A DNA stretch of 64,000 nucleotides from Christensenellales bacterium. Lineage in GTDB: Bacteria; Bacillota; Clostridia; Christensenellales; DTU072. A program made the translations under genes and the position numbers. Positions 1,078-64,000 of this stretch are shown here, in pieces. Each line of letters begins with the position of its first letter. Within the stretch, counting starts at the first letter, position 1. The notes beneath the pieces are model-generated. The model worked only from the letters and a program-made list of their open reading frames with translations. It made no database searches and had not been told where the DNA came from. Where the stretch lies: assembly GCA_050945855.1 (NCBI GenBank), contig JBMNTS010000005.1, positions 326 through 64,325 of the forward strand, read 5' to 3'.

Positions 1078-1080
1078 TTT

Positions 1081-1155: not shown

Positions 1156-1161
1156 GGGAAT

Positions 1162-1238: not shown

Positions 1239-1254
1239 ATGTAAATGTTGATTT

Positions 1255-1332
<78 letters not shown>

Positions 1333-3341: not shown

Positions 3342-4049
3342 GTGGATATATTTTCCCTGATCAGAAAAAACGCGCTTTTTGCTGATTTTACAGAAGAAGA
3401 AATCAACGGTGTGTTCGAATGCTTAAACGGCAAAATGAGTAAGGCCGGCACGGGCACGATAATCGCGCGCTCGGGCGAGGCGATAGAAAATATTACCATC
3501 ATCCTGAAGGGCGGAGCGATAAAATTCCGGATTAAGGAAAACGGGGAAAACGAGGCGCTGGAAGAAATCAAGGAAGGAGGCTGCTACGGCGACGTGGAAG
3601 GCTTTTTGCCGGGGCCGAAATACACCTACTTTGTGGTGACCAGCAAGGACAGTCTGCTTTTGAACATCAATATCGGCAGCATAGTCACATTAAGCGACGT
3701 CAGCTACGCGCCGCACCAGAAACTTATCCGCAACTGCCTTGCCCAGCTTGCTCGCAAGGTGCTGGGGCTGGAGCGGGGCACCTCTTACCTTATGATAAAG
3801 TCCATGCGCCTAAAGCTGGCGACTCTGATATGCGACTGCTACAAAAAGCAGCAGAGTGCGGAAATCAATCTGGGAATGAACCGCAACGAAATGGCGGAAT
3901 TTCTAAACGTAAGCAGACCTTCCATGAGCAGGGAAATGTGCAGAATGCGGGACGAGGGCATGTTCGACTTCCGCAAGGAGATAATAAAAATCAAAAATCT
4001 TGCCGCATTGGAAGAAATAGTAAGAACGGGAGAAAAGCCCAAAGCGTAA
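3342..4049 (+). CDS. Crp/Fnr family transcriptional regulator
   Basis: N-terminal cNMP-binding-like beta-roll (FADFTEEEINGV...GEAIENITIILKGG). C-terminal HTH (RNEMAEFLNVSRPSMSREMCRMRDEG). GTG start preceded by GGAGGA. Confidence 0.85.
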   Translation: MDIFSLIRKNALFADFTEEEINGVFECLNGKMSKAGTGTIIARSGEAIENITIILKGGAIKFRIKENGENEALEEIKEGGCYGDVEGFLPGPKYTYFVVTSKDSLLLNINIGSIVTLSDVSYAPHQKLIRNCLAQLARKVLGLERGTSYLMIKSMRLKLATLICDCYKKQQSAEINLGMNRNEMAEFLNVSRPSMSREMCRMRDEGMFDFRKEIIKIKNLAALEEIVRTGEKPKA

Positions 4050-4074
4050 GCCGCCCAAAAGCGGCTTTTTTGTT
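4048..4074 (+). terminator. rho-independent terminator
   Basis: AAGCCGC-ccaaaa-GCGGCTT followed by TTTTTGTT. It overlaps the crp-family stop codon. Confidence 0.7.
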
Positions 4075-4197
4075 GCGCCCGAAGTGTAATGCGAAAATTA
4101 AACTGCCGCAAAAGCCTTTTCGCGATACCGTTTTGCTTTTTTCGGCAAGCAAACTTCCGAGGCGGCGGGAGCGCGCCAAAAACCTCCCCGGTCAATC

Positions 4198-5753: not shown

Positions 5754-5792
5754 AACTCCGCAAGCCACCAACTCAAAGGAAAAAATGATTAT

Positions 5793-5824
5793 GCAAAAAG
5801 CCTTGATTTATCAAGGCTTTTTGC
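5793..5824. terminator. bidirectional terminator between convergent genes
   Basis: GCAAAAAGCCTTGA-ttta-TCAAGGCTTTTTGC. A perfect long palindrome with A-run and T-run built into the arms. Confidence 0.7.
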
Positions 5825-5882
5825 ATATAAGACCTTGACTGACCTTGCGGCATAATGCCTTTTTTATCGTATTGCGTCGGGG

Positions 5883-11997: not shown

Positions 11998-12683
11998 TGC
12001 TGAAGGTAATAAACGTTTATAAGACTTTTGAAAATGGCGGCTCTTTTGACGCCGGCAAAGACACCCGCCGCATGGTGCTCAAAGGCGTTAGTTTGGATAT
12101 CCAAAAGGGCGATTTTGTGTCTATAATGGGCGCCTCCGGCAGCGGGAAAAGCACGCTGCTCACCATTATGGGCGGCATCGACAGACCCACTGCGGGCGAA
12201 GTGTATTTTCAGGACAGATGCATAAGCAATCTCCCCGAATCCCAGCTTGCCGTACTGCGGCGTACAAAAATCGGTTTTGTGTTTCAGTTCTTTAATCTTG
12301 CCCCATACCTGAGCGTGGAGGAAAATATTTTACTGCCCATAATTCTGGACGGCAAAAAGGTCAGGGATTATGCGGGAAAAGCGGCGGAGCTTATGAAGTA
12401 TCTTGGGATAGCGGAGTATAAAAATTCCCTGCCCGGCAAGCTCTCGGGCGGAGAGCAGCAAAGGGTGGCTATCGCCAAAGGGCTTATCAGCGACCCCGAC
12501 GTAATCCTGCTTGACGAGCCTACCGGCAATCTGGACAGCGTAAGCGCGGAGGATATTATGCGCCTGCTGGTCAAAATCAATAATGAGCGGGGCACCACCA
12601 TAGTGCAGGTCACGCACAGCGAGCATAACGCCCTCTACGCTTCCAAAATCTATCATATCAAAGACGGTCAGATTATAGCCTAA
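11997..12683 (+). CDS. ABC transporter ATP-binding protein (MacB/LolD/FtsE-like)
   Basis: Walker [10 protein letters not shown], signature [12 protein letters not shown], Walker B ILLDEPT, H-loop VTHS. Confidence 0.9.
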
Positions 12684-18214: not shown

Positions 18215-18381
18215 CAATTAATAAGAAAAAAGCCTTGAGAACACTATAAATCTACCTTAACACGCCGCAGGCGTATTGCATTTCGGCATAAGCCGAAATT
18301 GCATATTGCCGGTATAGGCAATATTTCATATTGGCGCAAGCCAATATTTAATTGCGCCGCAAGGCGCCTTGCGGACGCGCA
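18215..18381 (+). repeat. dispersed intergenic element: about 45-nt head plus array of 6 short hairpins with conserved ATTGCAT-type spacers
   Basis: Hairpins are ACGCC-gca-GGCGT, TTCGGC-ataa-GCCGAA, ATTGCC-ggtata-GGCAAT, ATTGGC-gcaa-GCCAAT, GCGCC-gcaa-GGCGC and TGCG-gacg-CGCA. Spacers are ATTGCAT, ATTGCAT, ATTTCAT and ATTTAAT. 18257-18304 matches the reverse complement of 51777-51824 at 46 of 48 positions (manual alignment). Confidence 0.75.
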
Positions 18382-18382
18382 T

Positions 18383-21300
18383 CTATACAAGCATTTTCCC
18401 TATGGATGCCAACTCTTCCTGAGCTTCTTTGGGCAGCAGTACGGGCTGAATGCCCAGTTTATGACATTCCAGAATTTTGTGGGCGGTGATTTCCAATACT
18501 TCGGTAGTATCCGCCGCTCTCCTTACGCTGTTTCCGCAGACTACCAGACCGTGATTTTGCATTAGTGCCGCCGCGCCTTCCGCGCCTAAGGCATCGGCCA
18601 CCATATCGCCCAATTCGGGGGAGCCGGGGATAACAAAGTCCACTACGGGGACTTCGCCGATAAAGGCGGCGTCCGTGGAGACCGGCTTAAAGCTGAGATT
18701 GGTAAGCGCCATAAGGGTGGCCGCGGGGGCGTGGGAGTGAATCACCGCCATAATCTCCGGCCGTTTTTTGTAAATGGCAAGATGCACCATTTTTTCGCTG
18801 CTGGCGGAAAGGCTACTCTCGCCTACCACGTTGCCGTCAAGGTCTATGCGCACCATCATATCCGCCTTAAGGTCACCCTTGAATATGGAACTGGGCGTAA
18901 TCCATACGTGGTTGGGGTTGTCCTCACAGCGCGCGCTTACGTTGCCGCCTATGCCGGTAATAAGCCCTTTGGCGTAAAGCTCGTTGGTGACCTGCAATAT
19001 CTCGTCGCGCACGTCGCCCACTTTGGCAGCTTCAGGTTGGGCGTAAATGATTTTCTGTTCAACTGTTTCCCGCTTTTCCTCGGTTTTTTTCCCGAACAGC
19101 CTTGCAAAGAAACCTTGTTTCTTAGCCTGCCTTTCAACAACGGGCCGCGCCTCTTCCTTTTTGACTGTGTCCGCTTGCGGAGCAATTATCGGAGCCTGTG
19201 AAAGCGCGGAAACATCAGTGATACCCGTGCTTGCCATAGCTTTTCCGTAAGAGGTCATCATCAGCTTAAGCAAGGACTGCATGCTCATTGCCTTGCGCAC
19301 ATTGCCGGTAAAGCTCATTTTTCCCGTCATGGCCGCTTTCGCTCCGTTAACGGTGCCTTTCATCATTCCGTCAAATATCTCAATCGGCATATTCAGGCAC
19401 ACGTCGGCGGCGCCTCCGGTAAACTCGCCCAAGCCGCAAATAACCTCGCCGCCCTTGAAGTACATATAACAGCTTTGCCCGTTGTCCTTAAAGGTGATTT
19501 GGAAACTTATATCCTTACTCGCCGTCTTTTGCCCTACTTCCTCATCGGCGGAAAGCTCCTTTAAAAATGCCTCGATAAGCTGCATATATCCGCCCGCACC
19601 CGCCGGCGTTGCCGCGGTATCGGGTGCCTTTTGGGGCGCCGTTTCCGGCTTTTGAGATACCTTTACTTCTTGTTTCGCCGAAGCGGCGTCCAAATCGCTT
19701 ACCCCGGTCTGCTTGGCTTTAAGGCCGGCAAGCGCCTGTATATCCACCTTCCTTTCGCCCGTAAAGGAAAAGTCTTTAAGCGCCTTGCGGTTGATTACGT
19801 CCGAACTTAACTCTCCTTTGAGCAGCCTCTCGATATTTTCCGCGATTATCAGCCCCTGATGTATGCTTACCTGTTTGGTATTGCCGCCTATATGCGGAGT
19901 GCATAAAACGTTTTCCATTTGCACCAGCGGGTCATTATACGCCGGAGGCTCCACGTCAAATACGTCCAGTGCCGCTCCCGCCAGTTTTCCGCTTTTGAGA
20001 GCGTCCAACAGCGCGGCGCTGTCTACCAGCGCGGCGCGCGCGGTGTTGACGAAATACGCTCCGTCCTTCATTTTCGCGAACGCCTCCGCGTTAATCATCC
20101 CTTTGGTCTGCCCGGTTACCGGAGCATGCAGGCTTATTATATCGCTTTCACTAAGCAACTCGTCCAGTTCTGCCTTACGCGCGCCCATCAGAGCCGCCGC
20201 GCCGAAAGTAAGGTAAGGGTCGTACACCAGCACCTGCGCGCCGAAAGCAAGCAGCCTTTTCGCCACCTTTTTGCCTATCGCCCCGCCGCCTATAAGACCT
20301 ACCTTTTTGCGCCATAGTTCCATGCCCTGATAACGGAAATACGCCGCTCCCATTCTGCCCATATCCCCGGCCTGACCCCCTTCCTCTTTAAGGAAAGCCG
20401 CCGCCTGGGGAATCATGCGCGCGAGGTTGAGCATAAAAGCCAGCGCCAAATCCGCCACCGCCTCCGAATTTCTGCCCGGTGTGTACACTACCGCTATGCC
20501 CGCCGCGCTGCACGCGTCCACGTCGATATTGGTGGGATTGCCTCTGCATACGCCTATCATTCTGAGGTTGGGCAGCGCCTTTACTATGTCCGCGTCCACA
20601 ATATCCACTTCGGTAATAAAAATATCGTAATTTTTGAGGGTGGATATCATTTCCTCCCCTTCCAGCATGTCTCCGTCCCGGTAATTTTTCGCGGTGACTT
20701 CCCCGTAAGCGCGCAAAAGGTCGATAGCCTCCGCGGATAAATCCGCGTCCGAATAAATGCGCAGCTTAGCCTTTTGGGTGCCGCTCTTTTTTTCGCCCTC
20801 CGCCGACTTTAACTCGCTTATCAGCGCGCCTAACGGCATATTTGTTTCAAAGGAAGAGGCGTACGCCTCCCGCCACTCTTCGTAAATGCGGCGGTAGGTC
20901 TCCTCCTTGCCCGCGAACTTATCCTTTACGCCGACCATTTCGGCCGCTGCTTCCTTTAGCCCTTTGTATATCCCCGCGCCCGCCGCCGCGCATATAGCCG
21001 CGCCCAGTACGGACGCCTCCGGAAGCGCGGTCCTTATTATCTCCTTTTCCGTAACCTGAGAGATAATATAAGGAAAGATATCGTCTTTGCTCGCGCCGCC
21101 GCCTATGGCGATTTTTTCAGGCTCCGCCCCCGCGACCTCGGCAAGCTGGTCTATATTTGCCTTGACCCCGAAGGCAAGCCCTTCCACAACCCCGCGGGAA
21201 ATATTAGACCGGTCAAATTCGTTAGGAATATGATTGGTGGTGGAAAAGTATATCTGGTCAATGGGCAGGGCAAGCACGGAAACGTTGAAAACCGAAGCCC

Positions 21301-22318
21301 CCACCGTAGAGAGAAGCCCGCCCGCGCCGCAGGGAGCGGCGGCGGCGTTTTCCATAAGCGCGCCCACAGGATTGGGCAAGCCCTGATAAAGCAGCCCCGC
21401 TATCCATTCAAGCGCCATGCCCGAGCCGCCCGCGTTACTCTCCAATACATAAACGCCGGGGACGGGTCCCACGCCTGACCATAGCCTTTGCTTAGGGTCG
21501 ATTATCGGTTTTTCGGTAATCAATTGTATGGGCATGGTAGTGCCCGCCACGATTCCGCATTCCCCCGGGTTGACGATATTCATACCCAACAGCGCGCTTT
21601 GCGTATCTCCCGCGCCGTAGACCGCCCGCGCGCCCTCCTTAATATTGAGTTCCTTGCATAAATCGGGGAAAACCGTCCCCGCCTCGCTTGCGCAATCCAC
21701 AAGCGGTGGCAAAAACGCCTTGTTAAGCTCCAGTTTTTCGATAAGCTCATCCGACCAGGCCGAATTTTTAAGGTCGAACAATAAGGTTTCCCCCGCCTGT
21801 GTTCTTTCCACTCCGATTTTTCCGCAAAGACGGTAGATTATGTAATCGGAAAGGGTGAATACGGTGGCGATTTTGTCATACAAATCCCTTTGCGTATCCT
21901 TTAGCCACAGCAGCTTGCACGCCGTAAGGTTGGGCATGGGCTTATGCCCGCAGATGCTATAGATAAGGTCGGCGCAAGTGTCGTTTAAGCGCATTGTCGC
22001 ATCTACCGCGCGCGCGTCCCTGTTGGGGGAAGCAAACAGCGCCTCCCCGTCCTTATCCAGCGCAACCAGGGTATGCCTCATGGAAGATACGCCTATTGCG
22101 GCAATCTCGCTTACCCCCGCGCGCCTGACGCACTCCGCTATGCTTTCCCTGACCGCCTGCCAAATCAGGCCGGTATCCATACCGAAGCCGTAATCGCCTA
22201 TGGCGGATATGCCCCCTTTTACGTCGCGCCTGACCAGAGTAACCAACTCCTTACCGCAAAAAAGGGCGCACCTTATGGAGCCGCCCCCGATATCAATGCC
22301 TATTACGTTTTTTTTCAT
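18383..22318 (-). CDS. four-domain fusion protein: FGGY carbohydrate kinase / D-2-hydroxyacid dehydrogenase / SCP2 / class II aldolase-adducin
   Basis: A single 1311-aa ORF with RBS AGAGGT. aa 1-495 FGGY (IGIDIGGGSIR, GAGDTQSALLG, IAIGGGASKD). aa 517-845 2-HADH (GLIGGGAIGKKVAKRLLAFGAQVLVYDP, NTARAALVD, DVFDVEPP, TPHIGGNT). aa 908-1025 SCP2-like. aa 1098-1311 class II aldolase (GGNVSAR, HSHAP, QNHGLVV). Confidence 0.85.
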   Translation of the reverse strand: MKKNVIGIDIGGGSIRCALFCGKELVTLVRRDVKGGISAIGDYGFGMDTGLIWQAVRESIAECVRRAGVSEIAAIGVSSMRHTLVALDKDGEALFASPNRDARAVDATMRLNDTCADLIYSICGHKPMPNLTACKLLWLKDTQRDLYDKIATVFTLSDYIIYRLCGKIGVERTQAGETLLFDLKNSAWSDELIEKLELNKAFLPPLVDCASEAGTVFPDLCKELNIKEGARAVYGAGDTQSALLGMNIVNPGECGIVAGTTMPIQLITEKPIIDPKQRLWSGVGPVPGVYVLESNAGGSGMALEWIAGLLYQGLPNPVGALMENAAAAPCGAGGLLSTVGASVFNVSVLALPIDQIYFSTTNHIPNEFDRSNISRGVVEGLAFGVKANIDQLAEVAGAEPEKIAIGGGASKDDIFPYIISQVTEKEIIRTALPEASVLGAAICAAAGAGIYKGLKEAAAEMVGVKDKFAGKEETYRRIYEEWREAYASSFETNMPLGALISELKSAEGEKKSGTQKAKLRIYSDADLSAEAIDLLRAYGEVTAKNYRDGDMLEGEEMISTLKNYDIFITEVDIVDADIVKALPNLRMIGVCRGNPTNIDVDACSAAGIAVVYTPGRNSEAVADLALAFMLNLARMIPQAAAFLKEEGGQAGDMGRMGAAYFRYQGMELWRKKVGLIGGGAIGKKVAKRLLAFGAQVLVYDPYLTFGAAALMGARKAELDELLSESDIISLHAPVTGQTKGMINAEAFAKMKDGAYFVNTARAALVDSAALLDALKSGKLAGAALDVFDVEPPAYNDPLVQMENVLCTPHIGGNTKQVSIHQGLIIAENIERLLKGELSSDVINRKALKDFSFTGERKVDIQALAGLKAKQTGVSDLDAASAKQEVKVSQKPETAPQKAPDTAATPAGAGGYMQLIEAFLKELSADEEVGQKTASKDISFQITFKDNGQSCYMYFKGGEVICGLGEFTGGAADVCLNMPIEIFDGMMKGTVNGAKAAMTGKMSFTGNVRKAMSMQSLLKLMMTSYGKAMASTGITDVSALSQAPIIAPQADTVKKEEARPVVERQAKKQGFFARLFGKKTEEKRETVEQKIIYAQPEAAKVGDVRDEILQVTNELYAKGLITGIGGNVSARCEDNPNHVWITPSSIFKGDLKADMMVRIDLDGNVVGESSLSASSEKMVHLAIYKKRPEIMAVIHSHAPAATLMALTNLSFKPVSTDAAFIGEVPVVDFVIPGSPELGDMVADALGAEGAAALMQNHGLVVCGNSVRRAADTTEVLEITAHKILECHKLGIQPVLLPKEAQEELASIGKMLV

Positions 22319-26010: not shown

Positions 26011-27402
26011 TTGATGGAAAAGAGATATTTAACCAAAAGGGAAAAATGGTCTTTCAGCCTTGCCGGATTGGGTCAGAATATGGCTTACGGCATAATGAGC
26101 AGCTTCCTGCTTACCTTTTATACGGACATTATGTTTTCGGACGCGCTCTGGGTGATTACCGTGATTATGATTATCGCGCGGGTGTGGGACGCGGTGAACG
26201 ACCTTATTATGGGCTCTATCGTAGACCGTACGCGCACCCGGCTGGGTAAGTGCAGACCGTATCTTCTGGCCGCGCCCCTGCCCATAGCGGTATTTACCGT
26301 ATTGATATTTATTAAGCCGGAACTGCCGCTGGCGGCCAGGGTGGCATACGCTATGTTTACTTATATTATGTGGGGTATGCTCTATACGATAGCTGACGTG
26401 CCTTTCTGGGCGCTTCCCTCCACCATGACTCCCAACGCCGCGGAAAGGGCGGACTTTTTAAGCTTTGCCCGCATAGTCAACGGCATTGGGGCGGCGCTGC
26501 CCATATTGGTTATGGAATTGTTCAAAGGGGACAGCGGCTACACCAAGCAAAGCTACCTGTATTCTGCGATAATTATGGCAGCGGCGGGCTGCAGCCTGTA
26601 TCTGCTCGCCTTTTTCAATTGCAGGGAAAGGATAAGACCGCCGGAGAAAAAGGAAACGCTTATTGACAATATCAAACTTATCCGGCTTAACAAGCCGCTT
26701 AAACTGGTGATTTGCTTAGGCGTGCTTTGCTTCGGGCGGTATATCGTAAATATGTTTTTGATTTACGCCTCCAGGGATATCTTTATCGGCGCGCCGCAGG
26801 GCTTTTCCATGATATTGCTAAGCCTTGTAATCGGCCTGGGCACCTTCCCCGGCATGGCGGTTATGCCCGCTTTGTTTAAGAAATTCAATTATAAGCAGAT
26901 AGCGATAGGCGCGGGTACCGCTTCTTTTGTTTTTCAGCTGGCGCTGTTTATAGCGGGCGTGGCGTCGGGATATAATTATTATGTCGCGCTGCCCTTCTTG
27001 TTTTTCTGCGGCATACCTTTCGGCGTTTACAATACCCTTACTTTCGCGATAATCGGGGACAGCGTGGATTACATGGAATGGAAAACGGGAAAGAGGATAG
27101 AGGGTATAGGCTTTGCCTGTCAGACCTTTATCAACAAAATGGGCGCGGCTATCTCTACCGGCTTGATACCGCTGTTGCTTATTCTGGTGGGATACCTTGC
27201 TCCCGAAAAGCGGGATGCGGACTACGCCATACCCCGTCTGGGACTGCTTATTGTCTTTTCTTTAGTGCCCGCGGTAAGCATGCTTTTGTCCACAATACCC
27301 ATGTATTTTTACGACTATGTGGGCAAGACCAAGGAAAGGGCGTTGGAAGAGCTGGCGGCGACGCGCAGACGTGAAGGCAGAATAATAGAAGGAGAGATTT
27401 AG
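26011..27402 (+). CDS. GPH (glycoside-pentoside-hexuronide):cation symporter family MFS transporter
   Basis: 12-TM profile. N-terminal FSLAGLGQNM...FYTD and the RVWDAVNDLIMGSIVDRTRTRLGKCRPY motif typical of MelB/YicJ-type transporters. The start may be TTG 26011 or ATG 26014. Confidence 0.85.
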   Translation: MMEKRYLTKREKWSFSLAGLGQNMAYGIMSSFLLTFYTDIMFSDALWVITVIMIIARVWDAVNDLIMGSIVDRTRTRLGKCRPYLLAAPLPIAVFTVLIFIKPELPLAARVAYAMFTYIMWGMLYTIADVPFWALPSTMTPNAAERADFLSFARIVNGIGAALPILVMELFKGDSGYTKQSYLYSAIIMAAAGCSLYLLAFFNCRERIRPPEKKETLIDNIKLIRLNKPLKLVICLGVLCFGRYIVNMFLIYASRDIFIGAPQGFSMILLSLVIGLGTFPGMAVMPALFKKFNYKQIAIGAGTASFVFQLALFIAGVASGYNYYVALPFLFFCGIPFGVYNTLTFAIIGDSVDYMEWKTGKRIEGIGFACQTFINKMGAAISTGLIPLLLILVGYLAPEKRDADYAIPRLGLLIVFSLVPAVSMLLSTIPMYFYDYVGKTKERALEELAATRRREGRIIEGEI

Positions 27403-35031: not shown

Positions 35032-35104
35032 AGTCGGCGCGTATTTCTTCACGAAAATCAATGTAAAAAAATTTAATTTTGCGCCTAGAGTGCCTTTTAT
35101 TTGC

Positions 35105-35134
35105 TTGTGTATCGGCAATAAAGTGATGTATAAT
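35105..35134 (+). promoter_or_regulatory. candidate gdh promoter
   Basis: TTGTGT - 18 nt - TATAAT, about 70 nt upstream of the ATG at 35204. Confidence 0.4.
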
Positions 35135-35203
35135 TTAACAGTTGATTACCGTTTTTACAGTTTAAAGCATAGATATTTATACAAAGAGGTATATAATAAT
35201 TTT

Positions 35204-36451
35204 ATGAGCAAGTACAACCCGTTTGAGCAATTTCAGGCAAATTTGGATATGGCGGCCGAGGCGTTGGATTACAGCAGAAAGGATTATGAAACTTTCCGTT
35301 ATCCAGAGCGTGAGTTAACCGTTTATGTTCCGGTGGAGATGGATGACGGCTCCATAAAGGTTTTTAAAGGATACAGGGTGCAGCATTCCACGGTCAGAGG
35401 GCCGGGAAAGGGCGGCATAAGATTTCATCAGGACACGGACCTGGAAGAAGTCAAGGCGCTGGCGGGTTGGATGAGCTTAAAATGCGCGGTTGCCAACATA
35501 CCTTACGGCGGCGCGAAAGGGGGAATATGCGTTGACCCCTTCAAATTGTCCAAAGGAGAGCTGGAGCGGCTTACCCGCAGATATACTTCCATGATAGCGC
35601 CCATAATAGGGCCGCATAACGATATCCCCGCCCCCGACGTCAACACCAATGACCAGATAATGGCGTGGATGATGGATACCTATTCCATGCTTGCGGGATG
35701 CACCACGCCCGGCGTGGTTACGGGCAAGCCTTTGGCGATAGGCGGCTCATTGGGCAGAAAGGAAGCTACGGGCAGAGGGGTAATGTTCATTACCAAAGCG
35801 GTAGCGGAAAAATTGGGTATTAAGATGCAAGGCCTTCGCGTTATAGTGCAGGGCTTCGGAAACGTCGGCTCCACAACGGCGGCGTTTCTTGCAGAGCAAG
35901 GCGCAAAAATCGTGGGCATAAGCGATATTAGCACCGCTATTTACAATGAGGACGGCATTGACATACCCGAAGTGCTGCGCCAGAAAGGGAACGGATTGCT
36001 AGACAAAGTAACCGTGCCCGGGGAGAGAATACCCCTTAATAAAATACTTACGGCGGACTGCGACGTACTTATCCCCGCCGCGCTGGAAAACCAGATAGTG
36101 GAAAGCAACGCGCGCGACATTAAAGCTAAGATTATCGTGGAAGCCGCAAACGGTCCCACATCAGTGGAAGCGGACAAGATTTTGGCGGAAAGAGGCATTA
36201 TCGTTATACCCGATATCCTCGCCAACGCGGGCGGCGTGGTGGTAAGCTATTTTGAATGGGTGCAAAACCTGCAATCCTTAATGTGGGAAGAAGCGGAAGT
36301 AAACCAAAGAATGAAAAAGCTGCTCATTACCGCGTTGTATAAAATCATTGGCATTGTGGAGGGCAAAGGCGTATCCTACCGCAAGGCGGCGTATATGATA
36401 GCCTTGGAGGCGCTTTGCTCCAGCATGAAAGTAAGAGGTATTTTTCCTTAA
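35204..36451 (+). CDS. gdhA: glutamate dehydrogenase (Glu/Leu/Phe/Val dehydrogenase family)
   Basis: GYRVQHSTVRGPGKGGIRFH catalytic-lysine motif and NAD(P) site QGFGNVG. The track start at 35090 adds 38 non-homologous residues. The ATG at 35204 gives the usual roughly 415-aa protein. Confidence 0.9.
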   Translation: MSKYNPFEQFQANLDMAAEALDYSRKDYETFRYPERELTVYVPVEMDDGSIKVFKGYRVQHSTVRGPGKGGIRFHQDTDLEEVKALAGWMSLKCAVANIPYGGAKGGICVDPFKLSKGELERLTRRYTSMIAPIIGPHNDIPAPDVNTNDQIMAWMMDTYSMLAGCTTPGVVTGKPLAIGGSLGRKEATGRGVMFITKAVAEKLGIKMQGLRVIVQGFGNVGSTTAAFLAEQGAKIVGISDISTAIYNEDGIDIPEVLRQKGNGLLDKVTVPGERIPLNKILTADCDVLIPAALENQIVESNARDIKAKIIVEAANGPTSVEADKILAERGIIVIPDILANAGGVVVSYFEWVQNLQSLMWEEAEVNQRMKKLLITALYKIIGIVEGKGVSYRKAAYMIALEALCSSMKVRGIFP

Positions 36452-36474: not shown

Positions 36475-36514
36475 AAAGGGCGCCTTCTTATTGAGTAATA
36501 GGGGGGCGTTTTTT
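36475..36514 (+). terminator. rho-independent terminator of gdh
   Basis: 12-bp stem CGCCTTCTTATT-gagt-AATAGGGGGGCG (including G:U pairs) followed by TTTTTT. Confidence 0.7.
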
Positions 36515-36517
36515 CGT

Positions 36518-36602
36518 GTGTCCTGCGGACACATGATGTACTCACCGGCGGGAGCATGATGTACAAGGCTACGCCTTGCATGATGTGTAAAGACTGCGTC
36601 TT
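36518..36602 (+). repeat. hairpin array with conserved (C)ATGATGT(A/G) spacers
   Basis: GTGTCC-tgc-GGACAC / ATGATGTA / CTCaCC-ggc-GGGAG / CATGATGTA / CAAGGC-tac-GCCTTG / CATGATGTG / AAGAC-tgc-GTCTT. Period 23-24 bp. Confidence 0.7.
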
Positions 36603-36643
36603 GACATTATAAGTGACGTGTAACAGCTCCCTTTTAGCTTTTA

Positions 36644-44563: not shown

Positions 44564-45994
44564 ATGCAAGATTATAATAAAAAGTATCTGACGCGTACCA
44601 ACGTGTTTTCCTTTGCCGCAGGCGGCTTCGGACAAAATATGATAATAGGAATAGTCAATTCCTTTATCCTGTTTTTTTATACGGACATTCTTCTTATACC
44701 CACCGCCGCGGTAACCGTGCTGATGGCTTCCGCCAGGATTTTTGACGCGCTTAACGACCCGATTATGGGCATAATCGTAGACAAGACGCGCTCACGCTGG
44801 GGCAAACTCAGGCCGTATATTTTCGCAACGGTACTGCCTTTGGCGATAATCACCACCTTGCTGTTTTACGCCCCCGATTTGTCCGAAAAAGGCAAAATCG
44901 TTTACGCTTACATAACTTACTTTAGTTTCGGCATTATTTATACTATTTGCGACGTGCCTTTCTGGGGGCTTGCCTCCGCGATGACGCCCAATCCGGAAGA
45001 GCGTATACGCTTTATTTCTTTTTCCAGACTCTTTCACTCGGTGGGCGGCGCGCTGCCTATTCTGCTGGTGCCGATGTTTGTAAGTCTTGCGGGCGGCAGC
45101 AACCGGAAGGGATATTTTTCCGCGGGCTTGTTTGTGGGTATAGTGGGAGCGGCGCTGTTCTCTCTTGCTTTTTTCGGCACCAATGAAAGATGTGTTCAAT
45201 CGGAAAAAGCGCCCACGCTTAAGGATAACATAAAATTCTTTTTAATCAACCGCCCCCTTCAGCTGGTTGTGGGAGCCAACATTCTGGGCGCGGGCAGGGC
45301 TATCGCAATGGTGGCGAGTATGTATATCGCCGTATACCTTTTAGGCAACCCCTCCCTTAATATCATTGTTTTGGGCTCCTTTGGCGTTACGGGCTATTTA
45401 GGCATGCTGATTACTCCTCTGCTTGCCAAAAAAATCAACTACCGTCAAATGTATATTATGTGTACCATAATCGGCGTAACGGCAAATGCGCTGATGTTTG
45501 TTTGGGGGCAAAGCATGGCGGCTATTCTGGTTTGTATGGTAATAGCGGGCTTCCCTTACGGCGTGGCATCCAATATCAATTACGCCATGATTGCGGACAG
45601 CGTGGATTACGTGGAATGGAAAACGGGCAAACGCACGGAGGGCGTGTCAGCATCCTTCCAGACGCTTATGAACAAGCTTATGTCCGCCCTGCAGGTGGCG
45701 GGCACCGCTTACGCGCTCAAAACAGTCGGTTTTAAGCAGCCGGTTATGATTGACGGCGAACCGGTGACGCAGGTGCAGACGCAAGGCACGCTTAACGGCA
45801 TTTTCTTTGTAATTTCCATTATCCCCATGGTCAGTTGGATAATCGGACTGGCGCCTATGCTCTTCTACACCTTTATAGGCGAAAAGCGGCAGATTGCCCA
45901 CAGGGCGATAATTGATATGCGCAACCAAATCGGCGCGAAAGCCGAAGGGCAAGGCGTAGGGTGTGAAGATATAGAGTTTTTTGAGGAATACTAA
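44564..45994 (+). CDS. GPH:cation symporter family MFS transporter (second copy)
   Basis: Same motif set as 26011..27402 (FSFAAGGFGQNM...FYTD; RIFDALNDPIMGIIVDKTRSRWGKLRPY). Confidence 0.85.
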   Translation: MQDYNKKYLTRTNVFSFAAGGFGQNMIIGIVNSFILFFYTDILLIPTAAVTVLMASARIFDALNDPIMGIIVDKTRSRWGKLRPYIFATVLPLAIITTLLFYAPDLSEKGKIVYAYITYFSFGIIYTICDVPFWGLASAMTPNPEERIRFISFSRLFHSVGGALPILLVPMFVSLAGGSNRKGYFSAGLFVGIVGAALFSLAFFGTNERCVQSEKAPTLKDNIKFFLINRPLQLVVGANILGAGRAIAMVASMYIAVYLLGNPSLNIIVLGSFGVTGYLGMLITPLLAKKINYRQMYIMCTIIGVTANALMFVWGQSMAAILVCMVIAGFPYGVASNINYAMIADSVDYVEWKTGKRTEGVSASFQTLMNKLMSALQVAGTAYALKTVGFKQPVMIDGEPVTQVQTQGTLNGIFFVISIIPMVSWIIGLAPMLFYTFIGEKRQIAHRAIIDMRNQIGAKAEGQGVGCEDIEFFEEY

Positions 45995-46078
45995 TTGCGT
46001 CCGCAAGGCGCGCCCTGCGAACGCAAATGATACGTTCCCTTCGGGAACATGATACACGCCCTTACGGGCGCATGATAC
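45995..46078 (+). repeat. hairpin array with conserved ATGATAC spacers
   Basis: A long hairpin TTGCGT...ACGCAA encloses GGCGCGCC. Then ATGATAC / GTTCCC-ttc-GGGAAC / ATGATAC / CGCCC-ttac-GGGCG / cATGATAC. Period 22-23 bp. It begins 1 nt after the stop of the 44564 gene. Confidence 0.7.
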
Positions 46079-46132
46079 AAGCTACCCTCTTATTTGTGCT
46101 TGCTTTCCGGACGGCTTTTTGCAGAGAATGGG

Positions 46133-50795: not shown

Positions 50796-51749
50796 ATGGA
50801 CATTTACAAACAAATCGAGCTTGCGGGCATCATCCCTTTGATTAAACTGGAAAGACTGGAAAAAGCGCTGCCGCTTATGGGCGCTTTGACGGCGGGAAGC
50901 ATCAATTTATGCGAAATCGCTTTCCGAACGCAGATAGCCAAGGAAGCGATAGCGCTGATTGCGCAAAAAAGCGCGAATATGGTAGTAGGCGCAAGCACCG
51001 TGCTGTCCACAATGCAGGTGGATGACGCCATAGAGGCGGGAGCGCGGTTTATAGTCACCGCCGGATTTAACGAAAAGGTGGTGGATTACTGCCTGAAAAG
51101 AAAGGTGCCGGTTATCCCCGGCGTATCCTCCCCTTCGGATATAGAAAAAGCGTACGAAAGAGAAATTTATGTGGTCAAATTTTTCCCCGCTGTGCCTTTG
51201 GGCGGCGTGGAAATGCTAAAGGCGCTGGCGCAGCCTTATCCCTTTATGCGTTTTTTGCCCACAGGCGGCATCAATCAGGACAATCTCAACGAATTTTTGG
51301 CTTTCAACAGGGTTATTGCCTGCGGCGGCAGCTATATGGTAAACGAGGAACTGATTAAAGAGGACAGATACGAGGAAATAACCAAAAACGCGCGCAACGC
51401 GGTCAATTCCATGCTCAACCTCAGACTGGACCATATCGTATTATCCGCAAAATCGCAGGAAAGGCAAGACCTTGCCACCGAAATCGCCACCCTTTTGGGC
51501 GCGCCCTTTGTGTATGAGGAAGGGGAAAAAATAGGGGATATGATAGCGGTATCCTCACGGATTGCCTACGGAAAGCACGGGGCTATTTTCTTTTCCACCC
51601 CTCATCTGGAGCGCGCGATATTTTATCTGGAAAAGCGGGGCTTTGAGTTTTGCCGCGCTACCACGATAAAGGATAACGGCAAACTCAACGCCTTATATCT
51701 GAAAGCTAATTTTGCCGGCTTTGCAATCGGCTTGGTGAAAGCGCCGTAA
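50796..51749 (+). CDS. eda: KDPG/KHG aldolase (Eda) with C-terminal VOC/glyoxalase-like extension
   Basis: aa 1-215 carry the Eda pattern (GIIPLIK..., EIAFRT, VVKFFPA Schiff-base lysine context, PTGGI). aa 216-317 (LDHIVLS...HGAIFFSTPHLERAIFYLEKRGFEF...) look like one VOC beta-alpha-beta-beta-beta module. Confidence 0.7.
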   Translation: MDIYKQIELAGIIPLIKLERLEKALPLMGALTAGSINLCEIAFRTQIAKEAIALIAQKSANMVVGASTVLSTMQVDDAIEAGARFIVTAGFNEKVVDYCLKRKVPVIPGVSSPSDIEKAYEREIYVVKFFPAVPLGGVEMLKALAQPYPFMRFLPTGGINQDNLNEFLAFNRVIACGGSYMVNEELIKEDRYEEITKNARNAVNSMLNLRLDHIVLSAKSQERQDLATEIATLLGAPFVYEEGEKIGDMIAVSSRIAYGKHGAIFFSTPHLERAIFYLEKRGFEFCRATTIKDNGKLNALYLKANFAGFAIGLVKAP

Positions 51750-51761
51750 GACGCTCCAAGG

Positions 51762-51868
51762 GCGCCTTACGGCGCAATGCAATATCGGCTTATGCCCAAA
51801 TGCAATACGCCTGCGGCGTGTTAAGGCGGATTGATAGTAAGTTTCTTGAGTTTTTTCTTTATTAATTG
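51762..51868 (-). repeat. inverted copy of the 18215-18381 element (shorter hairpin tail)
   Basis: + strand reads GCGCC-ttac-GGCGC / AATGCAAT / degenerate tCGGC-ttat-GCCca / AATGCAAT / ACGCC-tgc-GGCGT, then GTTAAGG...TTTTTTCTTTATTAATTG. This is the reverse complement of the head of the 18.2-kb copy. Confidence 0.75.
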
Positions 51869-51892
51869 GGCGCCCGCAATCGGCGAAGCGGA

Positions 51893-51921
51893 TTGACAAT
51901 AGCTGGGCGCGGTTATATAAT
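51893..51921 (+). promoter_or_regulatory. consensus promoter of the PRT-DUF2156-GNAT-kinase operon
   Basis: TTGACA - 17 nt - TATAAT. RBS TAAGGAG before the ATG at 51976. Confidence 0.65.
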
Positions 51922-51975: not shown

Positions 51976-52512
51976 ATGGCAGAGTTTTATACCGTCAACA
52001 TTAAAGGCAGGGATGTGGATTTGCCCGTGATAAGAATATCCAACGACATCAAAATTGCGTTTTTCAACTTGCACGGCGCGCAGGATTTGACCGAGTTTTG
52101 CGCAAAAGAGATGGCAAAACTGGTGGAGGGCGCCGAAGTTGTGATAACCGCGGAAAGCAAAGGACTTCAGCTTGCCCATTGCGTGGCGCGCAACCTCGGA
52201 CACGAGTATTACGCAGTAGCGAGAAAATCTCAAAAACTGTATATGCAGGACTTTATCAGTTGTACGGTAAAATCCATAACCACCAAAGCGGTGCAGACCT
52301 TTTATCTTTCCCGCCACGACGCCGATTTAATGAAAGGCAAAAAAGTGGCAATAATTGACGACGTTATCTCCACGGGCGGCTCCCTGGACGGACTGGAGGT
52401 GCTTGTAAAGCAGTCCGGCGGCACCGTTTACAAAAAGGCGTTCGTGCTTGCGGAAGGCGACGCTTCCCTAAGAAGGGACGTGGAGTATCTTGCCCAAATA
52501 CCTTTACTGTAA
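51976..52512 (+). CDS. type I phosphoribosyltransferase (purine PRT / PurR C-domain-like)
   Basis: PRPP-binding loop VAIIDDVISTGGSL. Confidence 0.75.
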   Translation: MAEFYTVNIKGRDVDLPVIRISNDIKIAFFNLHGAQDLTEFCAKEMAKLVEGAEVVITAESKGLQLAHCVARNLGHEYYAVARKSQKLYMQDFISCTVKSITTKAVQTFYLSRHDADLMKGKKVAIIDDVISTGGSLDGLEVLVKQSGGTVYKKAFVLAEGDASLRRDVEYLAQIPLL

Positions 52513-60158: not shown

Positions 60159-63100
60159 ATGAAAAACTATAAACTGATTTCGGATAGAAAGATTCTGCCC
60201 ACGATAGTCGCTGCCCTTGCGCTCTTATTAGCATTTATATGTGCTTTGCAGCCCGTAGGCACGGCTTATGCCGACCTTTACGAGGATATTCACGTCAATG
60301 CTTCTCCGGGCAATCCTGATGAACTGGCGTTCAGTATAAATACCGCGGGCTATACTCCGGGCACCGTTGTGGGAGAGGAGCCCAGCATTACGCTCACTCT
60401 TACCGGTTCCGCGAGAAGGCCGCAGGATACCGAGTTCTATTTTATAGAGCAGGAGCAAATGGGCGCGCCCGGCGTTAACGAGCAATGGATACTGCTGACC
60501 AAGGATATGATAGGAGATGAAATGGCGGTTTATACCCCCACCATGGGCGCCAATTCCTATTTCAAAAAATACGTTTATTTCAAAGCCGTTATCAAAAAGC
60601 AGGACCCCGAAAATCCCCAGCTTTATTACGAATATCTTAAAGAAGAGGTGCCCGTTGAGATTATAGTCGACAAGAGCACCGAACTTAATTACGCCATTAC
60701 GGGCGTGGAGGCGTATTCCAAAGGCGCGGGCGGCGTTTTTGTGCCTTACGATTTTTCCGTCAACGCTCCCTTTGTGTCTACCGAATTGCGCTTTGTGCTG
60801 CAGACGGCAAGCTCCGAGCCTACCGCGATTACATATCAGTATTATTATGAAGGCTGCGGCGTTCCCTCCATTGACAACGAATGGGTTTCCATGGAAGGCA
60901 AGAGCATTACCTTCACCGCGGACAACGCCGGACAAATCAACGGCCCCATCTTTTTCAGGGCAAGGCATCGCGACCAGGGCATAGACCTCAGGTATAACGC
61001 GCAGCCTGTGTTCGCGCGTCTGGACACGGTAAGTCCCTCCTTTACGGTGCTGGCGACCAAGGCGGTTTCGGGCGGAGCATACTCCGTAGGCACCTGGAGC
61101 GATCAGGACGTGGAATATACGATAATCCCCGCAAGCCAGAACGTAAGCGATGTCAACTATTTCTACAGGCTGAGCACGGGAGATTTTATTGAGATTGTCC
61201 CCTCTACCTCCAACGGAAACAGGTTGTACAAAATCACCGTTTCGCAGACTACCGGCACGCTGAAATTTGAAGCGCGCACGTCCGCCGGCATGATTAACAA
61301 CAACAATGACACCAACTACAACACCCTGATAGATAAAAACAGGCCTCAGGTCAATATTATCGCCAAAGATAAGGACAATACCGATATCGCCTCCGTGGGC
61401 ACTCCTCCGGGGGAAGGCTACAGGGTAGGCTACGCTTCGGGCAAGATAGAGTTTACCATACGCAATATGGACGAGTTTGGCGCGCCCATTCCCAATACTT
61501 CCAAAGTTACCTACCTTTACAGCGTGGACGGCGGCGCCTTCAATCCCATACCTCAATCGGGCGGGCAGTACAAGCTTACCATTGAGGCGGGCAGCACCAA
61601 TATCTATAACAGGCAGATTGCCTTTAAGCTGACTTCGGACGCGGGCTTATCGGACACCAAAACCTTTACGGTAAATATTCTCAATGCCAATTTCACCGTG
61701 GAAATGGCCCCCTTATCCTATAACACGCATAACGGCTGGGCAAGCGAGAACATCCTTATAGATTTCTATATCGCGGACGGCGATTACAAATTCTACAATG
61801 AAATTTCCGGCGAAATCGCCGCCAAGCAGGAATTGACCGGCGTTACCAAGGGTCAGATAAGACCTTCGGACGGCAAAAGGCATTTTGAAGTGGTGTTCGA
61901 CAGACCGGTGAATAACGCCGCGATTATTTTCTCCGTGGAAAATATGGCGGGCGACGTTTGTGTCCTCCCCGCCACCGCTCCCATCAATCTGGACAACGTA
62001 TTGCCCGAAGCCACCATCAACGGAGTGGTCTTGGGCAGTCAGCAGCCCATAAGGGATAACGAGTGGTCCAACGGCAAGGTCGTGCTTACCGTTTACCCGC
62101 ACTCCAATCTTTCCGGCATAAGCGTTCAGTATGTGCATACCAACGGCATCCCCGAAAACATGACGGCAAATACGGACGGCAATTATACGGTTACCATTCA
62201 AAAGACCACGACTTGCGTGTTCCGCCTTATCAGCGGCAGCGGTTTGCAAAGGGATTTATCCTTCCAGGTAAATATTGACTTAAGCGATATTGACATTGAC
62301 ATTCAGGACTATGACCTGATTGCCTCCAGAGTGCATTCTCAGGATGTGCCCCTCACCTTTATAACTTCGCATACCGGGGACTTTACAGTATGGTATAAGG
62401 AACTGGGCGTCAACAATGACTTTATTCAGACGCAAAGCCGCACCTTTACCGTACCCGTAAGCAACGAGATCGCGCAGGGCACCAAACAGTTCGTGTTCTT
62501 CCTCGAGGCGAAAGCGATAGACAAAAACGGCAACAGAAAACGCTCGGAACAGCTTTCCATCGCTATCCAATATAATAGGACTCCCAGCGTAATAGAGGTA
62601 ACGAGGAGCAACGACCACGGCAGCGTTATCGAACAGGATTGGCTGAGAGGCAATATCATATTTGATATTACCAATCTGTTCGGGCATACCTATCAGGTTT
62701 CGCTTAACGGCGGAGCGTGGCAGGATATCGACGTTGTGCCGGATAACGATATCGTCAAGTTCTTCTTCTCGGGCATAGCCAACGGCGTGCTGGCTTACGA
62801 TATGAACGACGGCGGCAACTTTAACGGCACCGTTTCGATAAGGGCGATTAACAACGCGGGCTATCCCAGCAACGCCATCGCCATAAATAATATTAAGGTT
62901 GACAACAGCCGTCCCGACGTAATCAACGCGATAAGCATAGAAAAAGGAGAAAGGGACGCCGCCAACAGAAAGATTTACAGCGCGGCGGATATAGTTCTCA
63001 GAAACACCAACGGGCTTACGGCGTTTTCCGCTTACGCTCCTATTACCTATTATTATCAGATAAAGCAGTCCTCGGATATTCCTCCGCAGGCTCCCACCGA

Positions 63101-64000
63101 AGGCAATATGGGCTCTTGGATAAAACTTGAATCCCCGGTCACCTTTGACCAGAACGTATCCCTGTGGCTTTACGCGAGGAACATTCTGCAAGCGGATTCC
63201 ATGCAAATCAATTACTACGACTTTATCATAGATAATGGCAGCATTACTTTCAATGTTTCCTTCCCCACCGAGGCAGGTTCCACCAAGGATGCGAATATAT
63301 TCGAGTACACCTGGGGCACCTCCGCCGCCAACGTCTATTTCTTCAGTTCTTCGGTAACGGACGTATATTACTATTACACCATTTCGCAGGCGGCGCAAGT
63401 ACCCGAAGCGTCCTGGATGCTTATCAATCCGGGCGGCAATCCCGCGGGCAACTTTACTTTCTCTTATACTCAGGATATCAACGCTACTTTCCGTTTCAGG
63501 ATAAGGAACCGCGCGGGCACCGAGATAATTTCGGACAACAAAGCGGTAATAAGGATAGACAACGTAGAGCCTACCTTTACTGTGGAATATACCTCGGGCG
63601 GAAGCGCGTATACTCCCGGCACCTGGGCAAAGGAAGCCATTTCCATCAAGATTACCCCCACCGCGGTCAACCCCGGCGGCGTAAAATACGAGTATTATTT
63701 TGACGGCGTTTGGACGGAAACCCCCAGTCTTAACCTTACCTCGGATATGATTGAGAACTTTGATCCCAACCATAACGGCAACGGACAGGGCTTGTTCAGG
63801 ATAAGCGCGACCAGCAAGGTCAACAACAAAATGATAACCAGCGACCAGATAGCCATCAAGGTGGATAAGGAGAGCCCCAGATTTGACCTTTACGGCGTGA
63901 TAGGCAACAATGTGCAGATTACCTCGGGACAATGGTCAAACGAGGAGAACGTGCGTATAGATATCGTCAAGCAAAACAACAATATCTCCGACGTCACCTA
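60159..64000 (+). CDS. very large secreted surface protein with repeated Ig-like modules, 3' end outside window (absent from ORF track)
   Basis: ATG at 60159 with GAGGT 5 nt upstream. I read the frame codon by codon to nt 63998 with no stop (1280 codons). Signal peptide ...LQPVGTAYA/DL. Six (I/L/V)D..xP module boundaries at 61020, 61329, 61989, 62898, 63555 and 63861, each followed by a G.W motif. Confidence 0.8.
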   Translation, partial: MKNYKLISDRKILPTIVAALALLLAFICALQPVGTAYADLYEDIHVNASPGNPDELAFSINTAGYTPGTVVGEEPSITLTLTGSARRPQDTEFYFIEQEQMGAPGVNEQWILLTKDMIGDEMAVYTPTMGANSYFKKYVYFKAVIKKQDPENPQLYYEYLKEEVPVEIIVDKSTELNYAITGVEAYSKGAGGVFVPYDFSVNAPFVSTELRFVLQTASSEPTAITYQYYYEGCGVPSIDNEWVSMEGKSITFTADNAGQINGPIFFRARHRDQGIDLRYNAQPVFARLDTVSPSFTVLATKAVSGGAYSVGTWSDQDVEYTIIPASQNVSDVNYFYRLSTGDFIEIVPSTSNGNRLYKITVSQTTGTLKFEARTSAGMINNNNDTNYNTLIDKNRPQVNIIAKDKDNTDIASVGTPPGEGYRVGYASGKIEFTIRNMDEFGAPIPNTSKVTYLYSVDGGAFNPIPQSGGQYKLTIEAGSTNIYNRQIAFKLTSDAGLSDTKTFTVNILNANFTVEMAPLSYNTHNGWASENILIDFYIADGDYKFYNEISGEIAAKQELTGVTKGQIRPSDGKRHFEVVFDRPVNNAAIIFSVENMAGDVCVLPATAPINLDNVLPEATINGVVLGSQQPIRDNEWSNGKVVLTVYPHSNLSGISVQYVHTNGIPENMTANTDGNYTVTIQKTTTCVFRLISGSGLQRDLSFQVNIDLSDIDIDIQDYDLIASRVHSQDVPLTFITSHTGDFTVWYKELGVNNDFIQTQSRTFTVPVSNEIAQGTKQFVFFLEAKAIDKNGNRKRSEQLSIAIQYNRTPSVIEVTRSNDHGSVIEQDWLRGNIIFDITNLFGHTYQVSLNGGAWQDIDVVPDNDIVKFFFSGIANGVLAYDMNDGGNFNGTVSIRAINNAGYPSNAIAINNIKVDNSRPDVINAISIEKGERDAANRKIYSAADIVLRNTNGLTAFSAYAPITYYYQIKQSSDIPPQAPTEGNMGSWIKLESPVTFDQNVSLWLYARNILQADSMQINYYDFIIDNGSITFNVSFPTEAGSTKDANIFEYTWGTSAANVYFFSSSVTDVYYYYTISQAAQVPEASWMLINPGGNPAGNFTFSYTQDINATFRFRIRNRAGTEIISDNKAVIRIDNVEPTFTVEYTSGGSAYTPGTWAKEAISIKITPTAVNPGGVKYEYYFDGVWTETPSLNLTSDMIENFDPNHNGNGQGLFRISATSKVNNKMITSDQIAIKVDKESPRFDLYGVIGNNVQITSGQWSNEENVRIDIVKQNNNISDVT

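Follow-up and report, generated by a model that had tools for sequence, protein, structure and literature searches.

Hairpin modules at the ends of eda and a fusion gene

The DNA analyzed here, a 64,000-nt stretch of contig JBMNTS010000005.1 from a Christensenellales assembly (GCA_050945855.1; hereafter the window), carries two copies of a short array of hairpins, termed the module, each at the stop codon of a metabolic gene. Locus A occupies nearly all of the 178-nt gap between two convergent genes, and locus B lies between eda and a phosphoribosyltransferase (PRTase) gene. The DNA is that of an uncultured bacterium within the Clostridia; for three window proteins the nearest relatives are labelled Christensenellales, Clostridiales, Oscillospiraceae or Clostridia bacterium and reach only 60-82% protein identity. 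The genes and the parts of the module are listed below.

15235-18204, plus strand: GH2 beta-galactosidase gene (lacZ), convergent neighbour of locus A
18383-22318, minus strand: fusion gene FGGY / 2-Hacid_dh / SCP2 / Aldolase_II, 1311 aa, the upstream gene of locus A
18354-18378, minus strand: hairpin H1 of A, GCG(T)CCGCAAG-gcgc-CTTGCGGCGC, beginning 4 nt past the fusion-gene stop TAG (18383-18385), spacer ATGC
18275-18353, minus strand: internal hairpins of A, ATTGGC-ttgc-GCCAAT, ATTGCC-tatacc-GGCAAT and TTCGGC-ttat-GCCGAA
18215-18274, minus strand: terminal part of A, with ACGCC-tgc-GGCGT (18262-18274), GTTAAGG (18255-18261) and a 40-nt tail ending TTTTTTCTTATTAATTG (18215-18254)
50796-51749, plus strand: eda, encoding KDPG-aldolase with a C-terminal extension, the upstream gene of locus B
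51741-51775, plus strand: hairpin H1 of B, with 5' arm GCGCCGTAAG (51741-51750), 15-nt loop and 3' arm CTTACGGCGC (51766-51775), assigned from the fold and from homology to H1 of A
51776-51806, plus strand: middle part of B, with linker AATGCAAT, degenerate hairpin ATCGGC-ttat-GCCCAA and linker ATGCAAT
51807-51826, plus strand: terminal hairpin of B, ACGCC-tgc-GGCGT then GTTAAGG, identical in A and B
51827-51868, plus strand: AT-rich tail of B, with T6 (51851-51856) and CTTTATTAATTG (51857-51868), homologous with indels to 18215-18254 (minus strand)
51893-51921, plus strand: perfect sigma-70-type promoter (TTGACA, 17-nt spacer, TATAAT), outside the module and marking its limit
51976-52512, plus strand: PRTase gene, downstream of locus B and served by the 51893-51921 promoter

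Direct comparison of 18257-18304 with the reverse complement of 51777-51824 revealed agreement at 46 of 48 positions, exactly as the initial annotation had reported, and the 27-mer TTAACACGCCGCAGGCGTATTGCATTT occurs exactly twice within the window. The A/B pair is also the strongest inverted repeat pair that a repeat search returned for the window (I1, 69 nt, 88%). A first blastn high-scoring segment pair (HSP) joins 51777-51868 to 18304-18215 (86% over 93 nt, 4 gap positions, E=5e-24), bearing out the earlier claim that the flanking stretch is homologous with indels. A second HSP joins 51761-51807 to 18368-18322 (81%, E=4e-7) and pairs the first hairpin, first linker and second hairpin of B with the first two units of A; loci A and B are thus colinear from the upstream stop codon through the AT-rich tail. 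The divergence of units that had been described beyond the shared part (ATTGCC-ggtata-GGCAAT versus GCGCC-gtaa-GGCGC) was a misalignment, since the GCGCC hairpin of B corresponds to H1 of A. Low-complexity similarity, named at the outset as what would undo the proposal, does not account for the match. None of 100 shuffles contained a match to the 27-mer. Judged from sequence, A and B are homologous copies of one module, with low-complexity similarity excluded.

The module spans 51741-51868 (plus strand) at B and 18215-18381 (minus strand) at A, or 128-167 nt. A GC-rich hairpin at or next to the upstream stop codon is followed by one (B) or three (A) internal hairpins, the conserved hairpin ACGCCUGCGGCGU, GUUAAGG and the AT-rich tail, with a linker heptamer, AUGCAAU or AUGAAAU, conserved between units. 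Unit order is the same at both loci, A having two extra internal hairpin units; on the sense strand of the fusion gene the linkers of A read, in order, AATTAAAT, ATGAAAT, ATGCAAT and ATGCAAT. H1 differs between the copies by a single, compensatory change (C:G to U:A). The 5' arm of H1 at B includes the eda stop codon TAA (51747-51749), and this hairpin has an alternative inner form, GCGCC-ttac-GGCGC (51762-51775). The T6 run followed by CTT(T)ATTAATTG that the initial annotation described was found at 51851-51868 in B and at 18215-18234 (minus strand) in A, where 10 nt separate the end of the tail from the lacZ stop codon (18202-18204). The fold of locus A is much more stable than those of its shuffled versions (z = -5.3 and -4.8; 0/200 shuffles as stable), and RNAfold predicts an 8-bp closing helix, GCAAUUAA/UUAAUUGC, for A only; other strains do not preserve the counterpart pairing in B.

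Ten metagenome contigs of the same species (L001-L010; sample accessions such as ERZ2647914, SRR35641920 and JGI 3300058954) share 99.4-100% identity with the window, and the sample ERR6189733 also carries this species. The module at locus B is unaltered in the nine contigs that cover the entire eda-PRTase gap; the tenth, L007, stops within the shared core and shows no difference up to that point. The relative L015 (eda protein 82% identical) lacks the module; its eda-PRTase distance is 105 nt versus 226 nt in the window, and its -35 element lies 24 nt past the eda stop versus 143 nt. The extra ~120 nt in the window match the size of the module, with exact insertion boundaries unreadable at the divergence of L015. 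The comparison of empty with filled sites that had been proposed thus yielded an empty site in a relative, while among strains of the species no empty one appeared, all nine spanning contigs being filled. For locus A there is no usable empty site, as the fusion gene has no relative above 62% identity.

Kinship to the Gut-1 RNA family and further arrays

The Gut-1 motif (Rfam RF01706) was described in human-gut sequences by Weinberg et al. (2010, Genome Biol 11:R31, PMC2864571) and considered certainly an RNA by covariation and probably not cis-regulatory. Our literature search found no later paper on it, and Gut-1 has remained an orphan RNA family since 2010, of undescribed function and previously from gut metagenomes only; Rfam labels it "Gene; sRNA". 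Its model and seed alignment (Gut-1.sto, PMC2864571) consist of short hairpins with covarying stems, joined by linkers CARYNAAAU, GUGAAAU or RUGANAU. Gut-1 is the top Rfam match for A, B and a third array of the window, D, which is listed here with a fourth, C, and with the Gut-1 arrays used as controls.

45995-46078, plus strand (strand uncertain): array D, an H1-type hairpin and two further hairpins with ATGATAC linkers
36512-36606, plus strand: array C, with CATGATGTAC linkers, downstream of the glutamate dehydrogenase gene gdh (35090-36451) and its terminator-like hairpin, between convergent genes
L142 4284-4397, L096 9790-9866 and L057 4998-5071: bona fide Gut-1 arrays on viral contigs, 58-78 bits

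Locus A scored 38.7 bits at 18270-18354 (minus strand), a match whose core is the set of internal hairpins (18275-18353) and which covers the full model (positions 1-77), with an E-value of 1.6e-6 when searched locally and of 5e-4 when all 4227 families were run on the whole window. Locus B scored 18.0-19.4 bits and array D 19 bits (46015-46083). These matches were found in E-value mode, the Gut-1 gathering threshold being 50 bits; the bona fide controls from viral contigs reached 58-78 bits.

Features of the motif beyond the score were also compared. Locus A has 5-6 consecutive short hairpins, all perfect, and B has three, the middle one degenerate, with variable stems that preserve pairing as Gut-1 requires. 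Against the linker consensus RUGAAAU/RUGANAU, the linkers of A read AAUUAAAU, AUGAAAU, AUGCAAU and AUGCAAU and those of B AUGCAAU twice, so that one fits RUGAAAU and the others carry C for A. Both copies possess the UGC-loop terminal hairpin followed by GUU that characterizes Gut-1. With its flanking bases this hairpin, AAUACGCCUGCGGCGUGU (18 nt), is identical in seed BAAV01002358.1, where it is contained in GUGAAAUACGCCUGCGGCGUGUGAAAU, and in the IMG/VR locus L096; GCCUGCGGCAGUU, with the same loop and the same GUU after it, is found in six seed rows. Extension of the terminal hairpin by a U.G wobble is confined to the sense strand, in both copies and in the seeds.

Pattern matching across IMG/VR returned three bona fide Gut-1 arrays (L096, 77.7 bits; L057, 61.9; L142, 58.2), which places Gut-1 in phage or prophage sequence. 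The L142 array sits between a 619-aa open reading frame (ORF) and the next gene, as at locus B, whereas L057 carries forward and reverse arrays back to back; a sub-threshold array in L074 begins 11 nt past an 83-aa ORF. Gut-1 members with a visible upstream gene end follow it in sense orientation (L142, L074 and several seeds with an annotated stop). Many Gut-1 seeds have a reverse-orientation partner array and/or a helix that closes the forward array; neither A nor B is followed by such a partner, and the closing helix is predicted in A only.

The module and Gut-1 share at least three short hairpins with differing, covarying stems joined by a conserved heptamer, which here only partly fits the purine-UGA-N-AU type, a terminal hairpin NNGCCUGCGGCNN followed by GUU, a position just past the end of an upstream gene or tRNA in sense orientation, and occurrence in several copies per contig, only in metagenomic Clostridia-like or phage-like sequence. 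They differ in the linkers (AUGCAAU/AUGAAAU here; RUGAAAU, i.e. GUGAAAU, or GUGAUAU in Gut-1), in the module's own conserved first hairpin, which abuts or contains the stop codon, and in the AT-rich tail U6CUU(U)AUUAAUUG, which is not in the seeds read. From these comparisons, the module appears best classed as a diverged, lineage-specific, sub-threshold variant of the Gut-1-type hairpin array.

Array D begins 2 nt past the stop of an MFS_2 transporter gene (44564-45994), and the exact 15-mer GCGTCCGCAAGGCGC that opens H1 of A recurs in it at 45997-46011. Each of A, B and D thus begins 0-4 nt from a stop codon. Because the antisense strand of D folds better (-45.7 vs -33.1 kcal/mol), its functional strand is uncertain. 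Array C consists of the hairpins GTGTCC-tgc-GGACAC, CAAGGC-tac-GCCTTG and AAGAC-tgc-GTCTT and one imperfect hairpin; it gave no Gut-1 match at E<=10 and no Rfam match, and is related to A, B and D on architecture only. The initial annotation had presented the A/B pair as proof of a dispersed repeat. A wider repeat class does emerge, with D sharing the first hairpin and Gut-1 having the same build; the word proof is too strong, with only two copies of the exact module known.

Together, the window and L038, the 6.7 kb to its left, which holds no further array, contain four arrays in ~71 kb of this species. No such array was found in ~80 kb from relatives (L012, L015, L016, L041, L042, L044 and L046, identified by their homologues of eda, of the fusion gene or of the MFS transporter; GC 37-45% where measured). 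Across 1.33 Mb of other loci there is a single run of at least five perfect hairpins, namely a bona fide Gut-1 array. At the right end, the window could be extended only by a 1.3-kb contig.

Searches for further copies in sequence collections were negative. An exact 20-mer gave 0 matches in genome contigs (185,579 species genomes, from which this species is essentially absent), and its one metagenome match, L011, was set aside as a chance match without shared flanks or an array. A degenerate scan of the genome contigs with ATGCAATN{12,20}ATGCAATN{12,20}GTTAAGG returned 19 matches versus ~20 by a rough chance estimate, all unrelated and hairpin-free; the H1 15-mer with a linker within 5-30 nt (GCGTCCGCAAGGCGCN{5,30}ATGMWAY) gave 0 matches in viral contigs, and the entire element had no blastn match in the phage and plasmid collections. 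Since the species is absent from the genome and metagenome collections scanned, these negatives carry little weight. In Logan, contigs for lacZ and for the fusion gene end within the shared 32-mer; any exact repeat of at least 31 nt would have this effect, and nothing more than such a repeat is confirmed.

These results bear on the alternative that a local two-copy duplication or gene conversion produced A and B, with no family, no function and a coincidental likeness to Gut-1. Only two copies of the 93-nt module were found, the scans of 185,579 species genomes gave nothing or chance matches and the metagenome scan one chance match, and both Rfam scores are below threshold. However, array D carries the exact 15-mer of the H1 start, the Gut-1 match covers the whole model at a window-wide E of 5e-4, bona fide Gut-1 members contain the same 18 nt of terminal hairpin and flanks, and the negative scans come from collections without this species. 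We find this account hardly credible.

Transcription of the array and competing interpretations

Promoter and terminator scans of both loci detected no promoter preceding either copy and no sense-strand terminator (hairpin plus U-tract). Without its own promoter and with no sense-strand terminator before it, the array is expected to form the 3' end of the upstream gene's transcript. We favor, with about an even chance of being right, the interpretation of the module as a Gut-1-type array that resembles repetitive extragenic palindromic (REP) sequences and bacterial interspersed mosaic elements (BIMEs) and is co-transcribed as the 3' untranslated region (3'-UTR) of the upstream gene. The array would then form the untranslated end of the transcript, where its stacked hairpins could hold up 3'-to-5' exonucleases and serve as a landmark for processing, by analogy with the REPs of E. 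coli. REPs protect upstream mRNA from 3' exonucleases. Those within ~15 nt of a stop codon can reportedly also reduce translation, a finding attributed to Liang, Rudd and Deutscher in 2015, and the closeness of the present hairpins to stop codons may likewise let them affect translation termination. Differences in unit number might have arisen by slippage or unequal recombination between the repeated linkers, and new copies by a copying or recombination process of unspecified kind.

Placement supports the comparison. REPs and BIMEs are extragenic palindromic units in arrays, 3'-untranslated or intercistronic, inside transcription units and often a few nucleotides from a stop codon. Here, A, B and D lie 0-4 nt from stops, with B between eda and the next promoter, and A and B are oriented alike with respect to the gene at whose stop codon each lies, as the initial annotation had noted (n=2). 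The sense-only U.G wobble in the terminal hairpin points weakly to the same strand.

Several observations weigh against co-transcription as a functional RNA. Sense and antisense folding energies (A -60.0/-57.0, B -30.2/-33.8, C -33.5/-30.5, D -33.1/-45.7 kcal/mol) show no consistent strand preference across the four arrays. Locus B alone folds no better than shuffled sequence (z = -1.55). Both substitutions in the 48-nt core hit the stem of B's middle hairpin and each breaks a pair, leaving that hairpin without visible structural constraint. Covariation in palindromic repeats can also come from the DNA level. The agreement in orientation rests on n=2, as the only two known copies of the exact module are paralogues, and the scores of A, B and D all fall under the 50-bit Gut-1 threshold.

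If the 3'-UTR barrier holds, these arrays would be a Firmicutes and phage equivalent of REP-mediated mRNA stabilization; if it fails, they would be another lineage-specific selfish repeat. New here are the anchoring at stop codons of ordinary metabolic genes, a diverged Gut-1 variant in the defined setting of a Clostridia metagenome-assembled genome (MAG), the combination of fixed linkers and two end hairpins with a variable number of internal units, and an empty site in a related species.

A bolder proposal is that Gut-1-type arrays might be made by a copying mechanism of a kind not yet described, directed to stop codons or gene 3' ends (at eda the stop codon is part of the first stem), and would act as regulators adjacent to the stop. 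In such a scheme ribosome release or mRNA decay would be under the control of the first hairpin, while a dedicated RNA-binding protein or nuclease would be recruited to the linker-plus-hairpin units. The combined proposal is a long shot; if true, it would give a function to the orphan family of 2010 and a Clostridia and phage counterpart to REPs, one with conserved linkers and freely varying stems.

Absence of the module from L015 is also what would be expected of a selfish mobile repeat of REP or MITE (miniature inverted-repeat transposable element) type, moved at the DNA level by a transposase encoded elsewhere, such as a REP-associated tyrosine transposase (RAYT) or an IS200/IS605-type enzyme with specificity for DNA hairpins, and devoid of host function. 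Insertions after stops would then be tolerated, or the first hairpin or a terminator-like structure would be the target. The two unlinked copies in opposite genomic orientation, the four arrays in 71 kb of this species against ~80 kb of array-free relatives, the decay of B's middle hairpin and the BIME-like arrangement of Gut-1 elements (several per contig, in forward and reverse arrays) agree with this account. Other evidence counts against it. Presence/absence polymorphism is lacking, all nine same-species contigs that span locus B carrying the element unchanged. None of 16 window proteins scanned against Pfam is a transposase, with many window ORFs outside that scan, and none appears among precomputed Pfam families for the window's left 14 kb and left flank. 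REP units are sequence-conserved (an imperfect palindrome with 5' GTAG), number tens to hundreds per genome and are linked to RAYT transposases, whereas the stems here differ between units (TTCGGC, ATTGCC, ATTGGC, ACGCC, GCGCC) and the linker is constant, unlike in RAYT-recognized REPs. To our knowledge, no RAYT is known for this lineage. Overall, we regard a selfish repeat as unlikely, albeit an alternative to be taken seriously.

MITEs proper (Correia, RUP, BOX) resemble the module as short, non-coding, structured intergenic repeats that can be co-transcribed with their neighbors and can alter their expression. The module differs from them as a hairpin array with a variable unit number that lacks terminal inverted repeats and target-site duplications at either copy: its ends, GCG(T)CCG... 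and ...CTTATTAATTG, are not inverted repeats, and the flanks ATGC / CCGTGATATA (A) and GGTGAAA / GGCGCCCGC (B) contain no target-site duplication. The same two absences count against a selfish element in general, and the MITE identity that had been suggested for the repeat was rejected.

The Gut-1 annotation itself raises the possibility of a small RNA (sRNA) gene, stand-alone or derived from a 3'-UTR, whose product would be cleaved in the single-stranded, AU-rich linkers and act in trans, e.g. by titrating an RNA-binding protein specific for the linker-plus-hairpin unit. Weinberg et al. rated Gut-1 certainly RNA by covariation and probably not cis-regulatory (PMC2864571), the repeated units of conserved linker plus hairpin resemble protein sites and recall CsrB/RsmZ-type sponge RNAs, and the U.G wobble of the terminal hairpin is specific to the sense strand. 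Yet no promoter lies before either copy, the array starting 0-4 nt past a stop, and no terminator follows; two or three versions stand behind unrelated metabolic genes, unlike a single dedicated sRNA gene, and no candidate binding protein is known. Such a gene seems distinctly improbable.

The initial annotation had also proposed a terminator module. In that account the hairpins and T6 would stop transcription of the upstream gene while, on the other strand, a hairpin with AUUGCAUUU would stop convergent transcription, the element serving as terminator or insulator. Indeed, eda has no other terminator ahead of the next promoter, three of the four arrays lie between convergent genes, and terminator-like sites are present, on the antisense strand only, at 18262-18274, 18303-18324 (the lacZ sense strand) and 51819-51807. 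In contrast, the sense strand offers no hairpin with a U-tract: the T6 run lies 31 nt past the last hairpin with no stem before it, and without a preceding hairpin the tail of B is not an intrinsic terminator. The terminator-like counts are close to those of shuffles (1 vs 0.8 and 2 vs 0.6), and there is no convergent transcription at locus B. Ordinary terminators of hairpin plus T-run do occur in the window, e.g. at 4050-4071 and 5790-5827. With only antisense sites at the shuffle rate, the element fails the defining test of an intrinsic terminator, a role we consider very unlikely. The site at 5790-5827 is a perfect 17-bp palindrome (TATGCAAAAAGCCTTGA-ttta-TCAAGGCTTTTTGCATA) between convergent genes that looks like a bidirectional terminator, indicating that the genome uses canonical terminators elsewhere.

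Two further candidates were tried and rejected. An integron attC site is likewise a structured site directly after a stop codon, and the module ends in GTTAAGG (cf. GTTRRRY); however, no inverse core RYYYAAC occurs near the stop codon, the seventh base of GTTAAGG is off consensus, and the module comprises several separate hairpins instead of one long imperfect hairpin, with no integrase and no cassette organization. A small ORF can be read through the 48-nt core (15 codons, M-Q-(Y/F)-R-L-M-P-K-C-N-T-P-A-A-C). It has no ribosome-binding site, its frame is not a feature of the Gut-1 relatives, and one of the two substitutions alters the amino acid. In annotation, arrays of this kind should not be labelled terminators, CRISPR-like arrays or small ORFs.

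Neighboring genes and other repeats

The protein encoded by the fusion gene (18383-22318, minus strand) joins FGGY kinase, D-2-hydroxyacid dehydrogenase, SCP2 and class II aldolase domains. Only 88 of 5.8 billion proteins match it at E<=1e-50, the closest ~60% identical, and most of its closest relatives are 1480-1540 aa long with an extra PF14864 domain.

Just past the module at locus B, at 51871-51914, the window differs from nine same-species contigs (L001-L006 and L008-L010) at ~15 positions within 45 nt. These differences span the -35 element (TTGACA vs TTGACT) and the whole spacer of the PRTase promoter. The contigs are otherwise 99.4-99.7% identical over up to 7 kb, and the patch is either a local hot spot or the result of recombination.

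The transporter gene that precedes array D (44564-45994) and a second MFS_2/GPH sugar transporter gene (26011-27402) are 72-81% identical in nucleotide sequence over some stretches (repeat families D1 and D2), their proteins being only distantly related overall. Four tRNA genes are clustered at 1005-1332 (minus strand); ahead of the cluster on the same strand, a hairpin is followed by TTTTTTTCTTATTAT (~950-990), which resembles the T-rich tail of the module. GC skew was dropped as a replichore clue, as it tracks gene orientation.

Relatives carry intergenic repeats of other kinds. A Christensenellales MAG (L042) has its own dispersed repeat of ~250 nt at 3803-4093 and 14374-14622, and L046 has long AGCTGATA-type tandem runs at 9782-10000 and 12445-12775. 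Near the right end of the window, three consecutive ORFs with short coding-like gaps (60228-63932, minus strand) may represent one large surface-protein gene broken by stops or frameshifts; a gene for a 2443-aa Flg_new/LRR_5 protein in L044 is non-syntenic to it.

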